From Candidatus Methylomirabilota bacterium (GTDB lineage Bacteria; Methylomirabilota; Methylomirabilia; Rokubacteriales; CSP1-6), in the NCBI GenBank assembly GCA_035936835.1, contig DASYVT010000209.1, positions 11,627 to 75,626 of the forward strand: 64,000 nucleotides of DNA, written 5' to 3'. Shown piece by piece: positions 59,883 through 64,000 of this stretch. The position numbers were made by a program, and so were the translations under genes. How positions within the stretch are numbered: the stretch's first letter is position 1; every line of letters begins with the position of its first letter. Below the pieces are notes generated by a model. The model was not told the DNA's origin. It did not search any database and saw only the letters and a program-made list of their open reading frames with translations.

Positions 59883-60713
59883 ATGAGCCAGCGCGTCACG
59901 GAAGCGGAGCTCCTCGCGCGGATCGAGCGCGGCGAGCGCATCGAGTCGACCGAGGAGATGACGGAGGAGTACCGGCAGAGCTTGGTGCACCTCATGACCA
60001 TGCAGGCCGACTCCGAGCTCGCGGGCGGCTACGGCTACGTGCCGTGGATCATGAAGGCTCCCGGCGTCGAGGAGAAGCACGTCGTCGCGCAGATCGTCAA
60101 GGACGAGCACCGGCACGCCGCCGTCATGTACGGGCTCCTCGCCGACCTTGGAGTGGACGTGGACGCCCACGTGCGGGCCCACGACGAAGCCTTCGCCATG
60201 CGCATCGACGCGTCGGCCGATGACATCGGCACCGCTCGGATCGGCGCCGACAAGCGCGTGAACATCTTCTACTACCCGATCGACACGTGGGCCGACTTCA
60301 TCTTCTTCAACTTCTGCATGGACAGAGGGGCGGGTCACCAGCTGGAAGACGTGCGGCAGTGTTCCTACGGCCCGTGGGCGCGAGCCATCGAGGGCATCTT
60401 CAAGGAGGAGAAGTTCCACATCCGCCACGGCGAGTATTGGGTCACGAAGCTCGGCGGGGACCCCGCCACGCGGGGTGAGGCGCAGGCGACGCTCAACAAG
60501 TGGTTCATCCGCACGATGAACATCTTCGGCCGGCCCGGCTCGCCCAAAAACGCCCTCTACCGGAAGTACAAACTCAAGGTCCGGGACAACGATGAGGTCC
60601 GCCAGGCCTTCGCGGCCGAGGTCAAGGAGAAGGCTTTAGCAGTGGGCCTCACGCTGCCCGAGTGGATTCCGGTCTGGGACCGGCTGCCCGAAGAGGCCCA
60701 GATCCCAGGCTAG
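59883..60713 (+). CDS. PaaA/PaaC-family ferritin-like diiron protein (1,2-phenylacetyl-CoA epoxidase subunit A-like)
   Basis: Alignable to PaaA through YRQSLVHLMTMQADSELAGG...KDEHRHAAVMY...FFNFCMDRGAGHQLEDVRQCSYGPWARAIEGIFKEEKFHIRHGE. Confidence 0.7.
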   Translation: MSQRVTEAELLARIERGERIESTEEMTEEYRQSLVHLMTMQADSELAGGYGYVPWIMKAPGVEEKHVVAQIVKDEHRHAAVMYGLLADLGVDVDAHVRAHDEAFAMRIDASADDIGTARIGADKRVNIFYYPIDTWADFIFFNFCMDRGAGHQLEDVRQCSYGPWARAIEGIFKEEKFHIRHGEYWVTKLGGDPATRGEAQATLNKWFIRTMNIFGRPGSPKNALYRKYKLKVRDNDEVRQAFAAEVKEKALAVGLTLPEWIPVWDRLPEEAQIPG

Positions 60714-60718
60714 CTGCC

Positions 60719-61384
60719 ATGCCCCGCGTCGCGGCCTTACTCCTCGCCACGAGTCTTCTGGCATGCGCCGTTCCTGGCGAGTGCCAGACGGGCCGCCAGG
60801 TCAAGGTTGTCCTCGAGTTCCAGCAGCAGGGGCAGGACAGCCGCCAGGGCGTCCAGGGCCGTGTGAGCGGGGTCATCATCCAAGATGGTACGACACGCGG
60901 GCAGGACGGCAAGGCGCGAGGCCGCGGCGGTGTCGCGGTTCAGGACACGACGACGCGGACCATCCGGAGCGAGGGCATCTTCACGATCGTCCAGGACGGC
61001 GGCACGGCGAGCATGCTGGTGGCGAGCGAGGTGCCGGTCACCGTGGTCGGGTGGTTCCGCGACTACGCGGCGGGGCAGGGGTACGCGGCGCAGGGGATGG
61101 CCTGGCAGCGCGTCGGCACCACCCTCGTCGTGAGCCCGACCATCCTGCCCAACGGGCAGATCCGCGTCCGGCTCATTCCACAAGTAAGCTACTTCTCGCC
61201 CCAGGGCGACGGCAGCATCGAGTTCAACGAGGCCGCGACCGAGGTGATCGTGCCCAACGGTCGCGCGATGCGGATCGGCGGCGCCACCCGCGGCATCAAC
61301 CAGGTGACGCGCCAGATCCTCGGCTACCGCGAGCAGCAGTCCTCGAGCGAGTCGAGCTTCATCCTCACCGCCACCGTCCAGTGA
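60719..61384 (+). CDS. small lipoprotein whose C-terminal region resembles a secretin beta-domain
   Basis: Lipobox LLACAV. LVVSPTILPNGQIRVRLIPQVS...EVIVPNGRAMRIGG follows the secretin pattern L-x-V-x-P-x-I-x-x-G-x-I-x-L-x-I-x-x-x-V-S ... GG. Confidence 0.45.
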   Translation: MPRVAALLLATSLLACAVPGECQTGRQVKVVLEFQQQGQDSRQGVQGRVSGVIIQDGTTRGQDGKARGRGGVAVQDTTTRTIRSEGIFTIVQDGGTASMLVASEVPVTVVGWFRDYAAGQGYAAQGMAWQRVGTTLVVSPTILPNGQIRVRLIPQVSYFSPQGDGSIEFNEAATEVIVPNGRAMRIGGATRGINQVTRQILGYREQQSSSESSFILTATVQ

Positions 61385-61908: not shown

Positions 61909-62559
61909 TCAGGGCTTGGCTGGTGTCTGAAGGCTCGCTACGCGGGAGCGGATCTCCTCGGCGCGGCGAGTGTCCGGCAGGTCTTTGAGCAGGCGCTGAT
62001 ACGTCTCCACGGCCGCGGTCCGCTTGCCGCCGAGCTCCTGGGCGCGGGCAGCGTCGACCATTGCCTCCTCATAGAGGAAGTCCTTAGGCTTGGCCCTGCT
62101 AATAGCTGATAGGTATGCCTTCTCAGCGGCATCGTAGTTCTTCTCGACCTCCCAGCAGTAGCCGATATTGAGACCGGCCAGCGCTGCCAGGCTGCTGGAG
62201 CCGGCCTTGGCGCGGGCAAGCTCGAAGCTCGAGCGGGCCTGCGGGTACTGCGCGGCGCCGTAGCGGAGGCTTCCCAGGAGATAGGCGGCCTGGGCAACCG
62301 AGGACAGGCGCGGATAGTCCGCGATGACGGCCTGCAGCGCCTTCTCGGCGCGCTCGCGGACGTCGGCCGCGGCGCCGGGAGTCTGTGCCTTGGCCACGAG
62401 GGTCCGCGCCTGGGCGAACGCCATGCTCCCTTGTGACTCGTAGCGGCTCTTCCAAGCCGCCCAGCCGGCCCCCCCGAGACCCACGACTATGACGACGCTC
62501 AGGCCAAGGACGACCCAGCGAGTCCAGGGCCGCTCCCGAAGCCAGTCGAGAACGTTCAT
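61909..62559 (-). CDS. membrane-anchored tetratricopeptide-repeat protein (YfgM-like)
   Basis: Single N-terminal TM helix followed by TPR-like helical repeats. ATGA overlap with the bactofilin stop. Confidence 0.6.
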   Translation of the reverse strand: MNVLDWLRERPWTRWVVLGLSVVIVVGLGGAGWAAWKSRYESQGSMAFAQARTLVAKAQTPGAAADVRERAEKALQAVIADYPRLSSVAQAAYLLGSLRYGAAQYPQARSSFELARAKAGSSSLAALAGLNIGYCWEVEKNYDAAEKAYLSAISRAKPKDFLYEEAMVDAARAQELGGKRTAAVETYQRLLKDLPDTRRAEEIRSRVASLQTPAKP

Positions 62560-63044
62560 CGGGCGTTCTCGTCGTCCAGGCCCGGGTCGCTGACGCGCGC
62601 GGGCTCCGCGCGCTCGAGCCAAATCTCGCCTTTGACGGAAGATCCCTCAGCGGCCGAGAAGCTGCCGGCCTTGAGGGTACCGGTCAGGACGCCGGTGGGA
62701 AGGATGTCGAGGTGCGTGCTGGCCGTAAGGTTGCCGCGCACCTTGCCCGCGATGACGATCGAGGCCGCGTTGATATTGGCGTCGGCCTGAGCCGCCTCCG
62801 ACACGACCACGCGGCCCGAGACGTCGATCTCGCCCTCGAAGCGCCCGTAGATGTGAAAATCCCCTTCGCCTGTGATCTCGCCTCGGAGCGAAAGTCCGCT
62901 GCCGAGGACGGCACGGCCGGGATCGGGAGGGGCTCCGACAGGCGAATTCCCGATCGATGGCGGCGCGGCCTCTTCAGGCGAGCCCGCGAAGCCCAGGAAG
63001 CGCCACACCCCGCCGATGCCGCCCGCACGCCCGGAAGGAGCCAC
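62556..63044 (-). CDS. bactofilin (DUF583) cytoskeletal protein
   Basis: Repetitive beta-helix signature GEITGEGDFHIYGRFEGEIDVSGRVVVSE...ASIVIAGKVRGNLTAS. Confidence 0.75.
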   Translation of the reverse strand: MAPSGRAGGIGGVWRFLGFAGSPEEAAPPSIGNSPVGAPPDPGRAVLGSGLSLRGEITGEGDFHIYGRFEGEIDVSGRVVVSEAAQADANINAASIVIAGKVRGNLTASTHLDILPTGVLTGTLKAGSFSAAEGSSVKGEIWLERAEPARVSDPGLDDENAR

Positions 63045-63053
63045 GGGGTTAGT

Positions 63054-63689
63054 CTAAGTCGAGCGGCGGCCCAACCTCAAGGAGCTTCTGCGGTTCTCCC
63101 CTCGTCCCCTGCCCGATTTCCGCCCGAGGCGGCGCACCTCCGCGTGGCGGAAGCACGAGATCAGGTGGTCGTTGACGAGCCCGGCCGCTTGCATGAAGGC
63201 GTAGCAGATCGTGGGGCCCACGAAGGTGAATCCGCGACGCCGGAGATCGCGGCTCAGCTTGCGCGAGAGCGCCGTCTCGGCCGGGACTCGCCGCGGCGCG
63301 AGCCGGCGGTTCTGGATTGGCCTTCCGCCGACCGAGCTCCAGAGATAGGCCGCAAAGCTGCCGTGCTCGCGCTGGACCTCGAGGAAGGCGCGCGCGTTCC
63401 CGACGGCGCTCTCGATCTTTCCGCGATGGCGGATGGTGCCCGGATCGCGCAGGATGCGTGTCACCGCGGCAGGCGTGAAGCGCGCGACCCGCCTCGGGTC
63501 GAATCCTGCGAACGCCCGGCGGTACCCGCTCCGCCGTCGGAGCACGATGGACCAGCTGAGCCCCGCCTGCGCCCCTTCGAGGATGAGGAGCTCGAACAGC
63601 CGCCGGTCGGCGCGGATCGGAACGCCCCACTCGCGGTCGTGGTACGCGATCTCGGGCTCGCCGCGGGCCCAGTGACAGCGGCGGGGCAC
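63054..63689 (-). CDS. tag: DNA-3-methyladenine glycosylase I
   Basis: RCHWARGEPEIAYHDREWGVP...ICYAFMQAAGLVNDH aligns along the full length of E. coli Tag. GTG start. Confidence 0.85.
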   Translation of the reverse strand: MPRRCHWARGEPEIAYHDREWGVPIRADRRLFELLILEGAQAGLSWSIVLRRRSGYRRAFAGFDPRRVARFTPAAVTRILRDPGTIRHRGKIESAVGNARAFLEVQREHGSFAAYLWSSVGGRPIQNRRLAPRRVPAETALSRKLSRDLRRRGFTFVGPTICYAFMQAAGLVNDHLISCFRHAEVRRLGRKSGRGRGENRRSSLRLGRRST

Positions 63690-63694
63690 TGGAC

Positions 63695-64000
63695 TCAGCG
63701 GCAGTCGCTGTAGGCCGACGAGCCGATGTGGTACGTGTAACAGCGCAGGGGGGACGCGGGCGGCGGCACCGGACCCGCCTTCTTCTCGCGGGGCGCGCTC
63801 AAGCGAGGAGCGGGCACGGGAGCGCACTCGGCATGCGTGTCAGACCCGACGGTGTAGTTGTGACAGGCGACCGCTAAACTTTGGGGCACCGAACCGGGGG
63901 GCGCCGAACCGGGCGGGGCACAGGCGGTATGTGTGTCGGAGCCCGTCGAGTAGCTGGCGCAGTACGCGGGTGAGTCCGCGCCGGTCCCTCCGGCCGGCGC
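63695..64000 (-). CDS. Cys/Pro-rich repeat protein, 3' portion. The ORF continues past the window end, so its 5' end is not in the window.
   Basis: Three 15-aa modules (YCASYSTGSDTHTAC / CHNYTVGSDTHAEC / CYTYHIGSSAYSDC) separated by Pro-rich linkers. No in-frame stop up to nt 64000. Confidence 0.5.
   Translation of the reverse strand, partial: APAGGTGADSPAYCASYSTGSDTHTACAPPGSAPPGSVPQSLAVACHNYTVGSDTHAECAPVPAPRLSAPREKKAGPVPPPASPLRCYTYHIGSSAYSDCR

Follow-up and report, generated by a model that had tools for sequence, protein, structure and literature searches.

We describe here a small, Cys-rich protein family that we read as a Rokubacteria-specific, Sec-exported and disulfide-stapled three-hairpin protein of the cell envelope, encoded by a genuine gene and having a non-enzymatic binding or scaffold role; we give this reading a probability of roughly 0.7. 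The member from which the analysis started (hereafter, the Cys protein) lies at the end of the window, that is, the whole 64,000-nucleotide stretch of Candidatus Methylomirabilota DNA that was analysed. The family is undescribed, having neither a name nor a Pfam or NCBIfam model; its general kind is familiar.

A conserved three-module gene at the end of the window

The reading frame is on the minus strand, corresponds to frame 1 of the reverse complement of positions 63695-64000, and comprises 101 sense codons that remain open to the window end and are closed by a TGA at 63695-63697. Its translation is APAGGTGADSPAYCASYSTGSDTHTACAPPGSAPPGSVPQSLAVACHNYTVGSDTHAECAPVPAPRLSAPREKKAGPVPPPASPLRCYTYHIGSSAYSDCR*, and the product is laid out as APAGGTGADSPAY-CASYSTGSDTHTAC-APPGSAPPGSVPQSLAVA-CHNYTVGSDTHAEC-APVPAPRLSAPREKKAGPVPPPASPLR-CYTYHIGSSAYSDC-R, in which three modules with C-x12-C spacing (CASYSTGSDTHTAC, CHNYTVGSDTHAEC and CYTYHIGSSAYSDC; M1, M2 and M3 below) are separated by Pro/Ala-rich linkers. 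The original prediction of a Cys-pair repeat protein with Pro-rich linkers, running off the window, is borne out by this layout. It named no strand. Its C-x12/13-C spacing needs correction, as x12 occurs in all three modules and x13 in none, and its GSD(T/A)H core stands as GSDTH in M1 and M2 only, M3 having GSSAY. The features of the gene are as follows.

63695..64000, minus strand: partial coding sequence of the Cys protein, approximately the 3' 85% of a gene for a predicted exported three-hairpin protein of ~119 aa (translation, homologues, GC3, dN/dS and DNA alignment with locus L019)
63920..63961, minus strand: module M1, CASYSTGSDTHTAC (C-x12-C), predicted beta-hairpin at fragment residues 13-19/22-28
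63887..63916, minus strand: linker 1, a 15-nt tandem duplication (PPGSA/PPGSV; family alignment and DNA alignment)
63824..63865, minus strand: module M2, CHNYTVGSDTHAEC (C-x12-C), predicted beta-hairpin at residues 44-51/54-61
63743..63823, minus strand: linker 2, APVPAPRLSAPREKKAGPVPPPASPLR, Pro-rich, partly conserved and of low pLDDT
63701..63742, minus strand: module M3, CYTYHIGSSAYSDC (C-x12-C), followed by the C-terminal Arg; best-conserved module and predicted hairpin of highest pLDDT, residues 87-92/95-100

A six-frame regular-expression scan revealed no other occurrence of the module pattern in the 64-kb window; mononucleotide shuffles yielded 0.43 matches per window by chance, with a maximum of 2. 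Scans of the window for tRNAs and Rfam elements returned no matches, and a promoter and terminator scan of the related locus L003 was uninformative.

A search of 5.8 billion proteins retrieved 83 homologues with E values from 1e-21 to 2e-52, all of them annotated as "hypothetical", with no Pfam domain, and 111-138 aa long except for the truncated P0081 (58 aa). The full-length members now number about 88 (110-138 aa), and each of these 88 carries, after an N-terminal segment, exactly three C-x12-C modules and six Cys. In alignments made first with 53 members and then with 60, no member departs from the six Cys, and several positions with Tyr, Gly, Asp or Thr are fully or almost fully conserved. 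A HMMER profile scan of 1.84 billion cluster representatives gave 15 matches, about 12 of which are genuine; all of the latter are 110-128 aa long and have three modules, none having more or fewer. Among the candidates examined as distant relatives or as different architectures, P0093 (an 806-aa FN3-like repeat protein) and the low-complexity P0096 were false positives, and P0088 and P0092 were frame-fusion artefacts of gene calling. P0084, encoded on a 763-nt ENA contig, joins the N-terminal ~128 residues of Tag, the product of the next gene downstream, with the C-terminal ~35 of the Cys protein; this apparent fusion is best read as a short-read assembly chimera at a shared APR microhomology.

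The original prediction did not recognise the family, and neither did we find a profile match in Pfam, NCBIfam, PADLOC or PHROGs or a match in PDB by sequence or by fold; no known Cys-rich domain family and no upstream stop or frameshift came to light. Nothing relevant emerged from a literature search on cysteine-rich Rokubacteria proteins and GSDTH. Orthologues are already public as "hypothetical protein" of Candidatus Rokubacteria MAGs, for instance P0029 (Q7W02_02235, GCA_030647435.1); they are 60-89% identical to the window protein and resemble it in length, in the three modules and in their neighbours. All sources with taxon names are Candidatus Rokubacteria or Rokuibacteriota MAGs, and a pattern scan of GTDB genomes added a single locus, also in a Rokuibacteriota MAG. 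Judging from these sequences, the family appears to be narrow, lineage-specific and restricted to soil Rokubacteria (phylum Methylomirabilota). It is under-counted in protein databases, because in L013/L014 (4255-4572) the gene is intact with its three modules, yet was left uncalled by the gene caller of the source; there its last 10 nt are shared with the start of Tag.

The Cys-protein ORF is a genuine, conserved protein-coding gene. In a genome of 69% GC, long ORFs arise in all frames, many overlapping ones are present in the window, and this one leaves the window with its start codon out of view, so that a spurious frame, non-coding or an antisense shadow, had to be considered. This explanation is refuted by the homologues, the invariant Cys, GC3 and dN/dS, and we attach practically no probability to it. 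Full-length homologues bearing start codons are known from dozens of metagenomes, the frame shows a strong codon bias (GC3 of 0.81-0.86 versus GC1 of 0.62), and the two other minus-strand frames contain stops. Purifying selection is indicated by Nei-Gojobori dN/dS values of 0.21-0.36 in nine of ten pairs (window plus four loci); the closest pair only, which has few substitutions, gave 0.62. The syntenic position, with junctions of 4-5 nt to the flanking genes in most loci, likewise speaks against a spurious frame.

Far more of the gene is visible than the 3' third that had been supposed. Since homologues are 110-138 aa long and the nearest one, P0001 (119 aa), has the same short N-terminus as the window protein, about 85% of the gene appears to lie inside the window, with about 18 codons, all probably belonging to the signal peptide, past its end. 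At the DNA level the window and the P0001 gene (L019) have in common this short N-terminal form and the 15-nt duplication in linker 1. The duplicated unit is present once in most members, twice in the window and P0001, and three times in P0017; this change in copy number is a small in-frame slippage polymorphism.

Predicted hairpins and a probable export signal

The relationship among modules was assessed by cross-scoring module HMMs. M1 and M2 scored against each other with medians of 24-27 bits, versus a maximum of 14 in composition-preserving shuffles, and are clearly homologous. The sequence similarity of M3 to the other modules is marginal (medians of about 0-11 bits); what it has in common with them is the spacing, a Tyr at position 4, the turn formed by Gly7 and Ser8, and beta-branching of residue 6. 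No part of the protein is better conserved than M3 with the terminal Arg, and this holds for the most divergent members too (e.g. RCYSYAIGASVYTDCR in P0089); the C, Y, Y and C of M3 are invariant.

AlphaFold2 was run twice, once on P0001 with 53 sequences and once on the window fragment with 60. Both runs produced exactly three two-stranded beta-hairpins with two-residue turns and a Cys at both ends. Hairpins 2 and 3 were the more confident, with a block-mean pLDDT of about 72-92, against 59-64 in hairpin 1. The linkers were predicted as disordered and, like the N-terminus, scored a pLDDT <50; mean pLDDT was 61-65 with a pTM of 0.24-0.28, and the models contain no fixed mutual arrangement of the hairpins. 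In the modelled register, position 4 (Tyr) lies opposite position 11 (His/Tyr) and position 6 (Thr/Val/Ile) opposite position 9 (Asp/Ser); Cys1 would lie opposite Cys14, the geometry expected of a terminal disulfide clamp. With six invariant Cys whose pairs fall at the ends of predicted hairpins, the protein probably contains three disulfides.

The tolerance of linker 1 to 15-nt tandem duplications is consistent with the role of a tether. In linker 2, V, L, PP and the R before Cys are conserved in at least 90% of members, which may be more than a "beads on a string" picture allows for.

The export signal, which lies outside the window, was judged from homologues. Full-length relatives start with a typical export signal such as MSRLLSAGTLAALLIVCAAPRTGEGSAEPAGGTGADSPAFC..., a K or R occurs within the first 8 residues in 78 of 88 members, the maximum 12-residue Kyte-Doolittle score has a median of 2.49 (hydropathy script, 88 members), and cleavage-like sites of the kind GSA|E or ASA|Q occur often. 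By inspection and hydropathy the Cys protein would therefore have the tripartite organisation of a Sec signal. At the lipobox place 68 of the 88 members have a Cys, usually preceded by a non-canonical Val at -1 (L-I-V-C) and in some members by the variants L-I-A-C or L-S-A-C; in the other 20 this place holds F, Y or S or has no Cys. Most members are possibly lipid-anchored. The suggestion of a secreted, disulfide-rich repeat protein in the original prediction fits the signal-type hydrophobic N-terminus of the homologues and the invariant Cys at the predicted hairpin ends. As to known classes, the protein can be assigned only to the generic one of signal-peptide proteins and, plausibly, to disulfide-bonded extracytoplasmic proteins. 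The net charge is -1, -2 and -1 for the consensus modules and 0 for the 101 residues encoded in the window, so that the modules lack the net positive charge of cationic beta-hairpin antimicrobials.

The gene string and its surroundings

The Cys gene belongs to a string of genes ordered 2-TM mini-protein, Cys protein, Tag, bactofilin and TPR_21, which was found in L001-L012 and L019/L020 and, without Tag, in the P0073 locus. The window holds the downstream part of the same string (61909-63689), and the first gene is known from related loci:

63054..63689, minus strand: Tag, DNA-3-methyladenine glycosylase I (Pfam PF03352, E 2e-73; GTG start)
62556..63044, minus strand: bactofilin (PF04519, E 6e-23; exact start codon uncertain)
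61909..62559, minus strand: TPR_21 (YfgM-like) membrane-anchored TPR protein, last gene of the string (PF09976 and TPR_6)
Off-window (L003 9777-10004; L001 9777-10004; L019 714-941): gene of the 2-TM mini-protein

The string is presumably an operon. The GTG start of Tag lies 5 nt past the Cys-protein stop in the window, as it does in L001 and L003; the distance is 4-5 nt in most loci and 44 nt in L006-L008. Tag is a same-strand neighbour, probably co-transcribed with the Cys gene, and we regard it as functionally separate from the Cys protein. A functional link to Tag was rejected as unnecessary, the P0073 locus keeping the 2-TM and Cys genes without it. More generally, co-transcription says little about function here because the string mixes cytoplasmic (Tag, bactofilin) and envelope proteins. 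The bactofilin gene is kept in every related locus. The TPR_21 start was placed at an internal ATG, in a 4-nt overlap with the bactofilin stop, as in L001 (216-aa orthologues); an orthologue has an N-terminal TM anchor, which we take to fit a periplasm-facing YfgM-like protein.

Wherever a locus extends far enough, the Cys gene is directly preceded by the gene of the 2-TM mini-protein (75-91 aa), whose stop overlaps the Cys-gene start by 4 nt. The core of the mini-protein, SRYASLLWLLAALSLVGWLIVNLDTAGWIIISLVxGLMAWQLTRRERRER, is near-identical across loci whose Cys proteins differ by 25-30%. No Pfam or NCBIfam family corresponds to it, and the JGI labels that it carries ("Flp pilus assembly protein TadB" or "cytochrome b561") are wrong. 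The 2-TM family extends to 180 clusters across Methylomirabilota, always near the bactofilin and TPR_21 pair. In the more distant Methylomirabilota loci L015-L018, the 2-TM, bactofilin and TPR genes are present together with another small membrane protein, and the Cys protein and Tag are absent. An obligate pairing of the 2-TM and Cys proteins was rejected on these grounds, and because of the same loci we regard the Cys protein as a dispensable, lineage-specific add-on; the distribution indicates that it was added within a sub-lineage to an older set made up of the 2-TM, bactofilin and TPR genes. Directly upstream of bactofilin, L015 (4476-4706) and L017 (4445-4693) encode a different predicted membrane protein of 76-82 aa, which has no Pfam family.

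Several features of the surroundings were recorded on their own account. The tRNA-Arg(CCT) gene upstream of the 2-TM/Cys pair (L003 9651-9727) is an integration hotspot, occupied in L001 (1-9600) by a prophage-like block (Prim-Pol/PriCT, terminase-like, ParD/ParE) and in L006 (300-3300) and L007 by an integrase and ParDE. Beyond this tRNA lies a conserved block of surE, pcm, acylphosphatase, nlpD-like (LysM+M23) and sigma-70 genes (L003 5524-9314, L010 1910-5615, L011 1812-5596), which has the E. coli-like order surE, pcm, nlpD and sigma factor with acylphosphatase inserted; it suggests that its 316-aa sigma-70 protein is an RpoS-like factor in Rokubacteria. On the plus strand of the window, positions 60662-61384 encode a protein of ~213-240 aa with a partial Secretin domain only (PF00263, E 1.7e-10). 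The gene of this odd, truncated secretin-like protein is flanked by those of a PaaA/PaaC-like protein and a 4HBT thioesterase, in a phenylacetate-CoA-type context, and is conserved in all related loci.

Proposed role and comparison with known systems

We propose that the gene would be translated into a pre-protein of ~119 aa whose N-terminal signal directs it to Sec export and is then cleaved by signal peptidase I or, perhaps, in most members by signal peptidase II at the lipobox-like L-I-V/A-C. In the oxidising periplasm each invariant C-x12-C pair would form a disulfide clamping the ends of a 14-residue two-stranded beta-hairpin, made up of a predicted strand C-x-x-Y-x-(V/T/I), a G-S turn and a strand (D/S)-(T/A)-(H/Y)-(T/A)-x-C. 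The mature form may then present three rigid, neutral-to-acidic hairpins with Tyr/Thr/His faces on flexible Pro/Ala-rich tethers. The protein has no catalytic features, and its most likely role in the cell envelope would be a non-enzymatic one, in binding or as a scaffold; contacts would then probably be made by the C-terminal hairpin (CYTYHIGSSxYTDCR), the most conserved of the three. A more specific version, which we consider a long shot, is that the hairpins constitute a new extracytoplasmic mini-domain that docks onto the 2-TM protein and/or the YfgM-like TPR protein and links a periplasmic element to the bactofilin cytoskeleton; if true, Rokubacteria would have a trans-envelope module of their own, serving cell shape or the organisation of the envelope. 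Less likely than such docking is that the modules are released and act as disulfide-cyclised signalling peptides of a new, Sec-dependent class.

The original prediction also raised a multi-core precursor and a metal-binding protein as readings of the repeat. As a RiPP- or bacteriocin-like precursor, the protein would have three cores that, once cut from its Pro-rich linkers, would be set free as disulfide-cyclised 14-mers, and the 2-TM protein would be an immunity or export factor. Short Cys-bounded modules with linkers between them are what such a precursor would look like, linker length varies, and the translationally coupled gene for a small membrane protein upstream recalls a bacteriocin/immunity pair. 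Against the precursor reading, this 2-TM protein is found without the Cys protein in other Methylomirabilota. The reading is unsupported because no radical-SAM maturase, leader or other peptidase, or ABC or other exporter adjoins the gene in more than ten loci whose neighbours were checked. The adjacent genes in L001-L014, L019 and L020 are those of the 2-TM mini-protein, Tag, bactofilin and TPR_21 (the P0073 locus having no Tag), and the radical-SAM genes within 10 kb are only of the MiaB type (UPF0004 + Radical_SAM + TRAM) and the PDZ/DUF512 type, several kb away from the Cys gene and inside conserved housekeeping blocks. The N-terminus resembles a Sec signal and not a leader, the hairpins are neutral to acidic, the module number is fixed at three in all 88 members, and linker 2 contains conserved residues. 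Bacteriocins typically have a patchy, accessory distribution, whereas the Cys gene has the same conserved chromosomal position in every recovered locus and is under purifying selection. On this balance we consider a multi-core precursor very improbable.

A periplasmic binder of Cu, Zn or Ni, to which each module would contribute His, Asp and possibly Cys ligands, seems unlikely to us, though less so than a precursor. Among close relatives His, Asp and Cys are more than 85% conserved in M1 and M2, in the models H2, Y4, D9, H11 and E13 of M2 would share one face of the hairpin, and genes for CutA1 and MerR are found ~5 kb upstream in L003, L010 and L011. The case is weakened because divergent members carry other residues in place of the module His: at position 11, P0087 has Tyr in both modules, P0089 has Arg in M1, P0090 has Gln in M2 and P0091 has Gln in M1, and M3 has Tyr there in every member. 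Full invariance is limited to the six Cys, Gly, Asp, Thr and two Tyr. The protein has no CxxC, CxC, HxH or Met-rich motif, and Cys at hairpin termini suits a disulfide better than chelation. The CutA1 and MerR genes belong to a separate conserved block, past the sigma-factor gene and, in L003, tRNA-Arg, and no metal transporter or oxidase gene is adjacent.

If the envelope-protein reading is right, an uncultured soil phylum gains another small envelope protein that is specific to one lineage, and the family is a compact case of disulfide-stapled hairpins and proline tethers making up a whole protein. The family might appeal to those who catalogue small or orphan proteins and to designers of stapled hairpin scaffolds; no standing question is answered by it, and a tempting but unsupported natural-product (RiPP) lead is now removed. 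The string of 2-TM, bactofilin and YfgM-like TPR genes across Methylomirabilota may be of wider interest than the Cys protein itself.

Three kinds of known systems offer themselves for comparison, and the Cys protein belongs to none of them. Multi-core RiPP precursors of the cyanobactin or orbitide type likewise have short core-like repeats and spacers in one small ORF; unlike them, the Cys protein lacks a leader, recognition sequences and a neighbouring maturase, protease or exporter, and has a fixed copy number and a conserved syntenic position. Thanatin, arenicin and the tachyplesin/protegrin group are two-stranded antiparallel hairpins tied by Cys-Cys bonds, and are single, strongly cationic, amphipathic host-defence peptides of eukaryotes cut from pro-peptides. 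The likeness is that of a short end-tied hairpin of 14-21 residues; the Cys protein, in contrast, has three neutral-to-acidic hairpins, apparently kept in one bacterial, Sec-exported protein, with neither evident sequence similarity to these peptides nor processing machinery. The choline- or cell-wall-binding repeats (CW_binding_1) are hairpins that pack into one unbroken solenoid, have neither disulfides nor linkers, and are detectable with Pfam. Tandem hairpins of ~14-20 residues with conserved aromatics and a Gly turn, and a non-enzymatic extracytoplasmic ligand-binding role, would be common to both; the Cys protein differs in having no Pfam match, in its putatively Cys-clamped hairpins and Pro-rich linkers, and in a predicted structure without confident packing (pTM 0.24-0.28).
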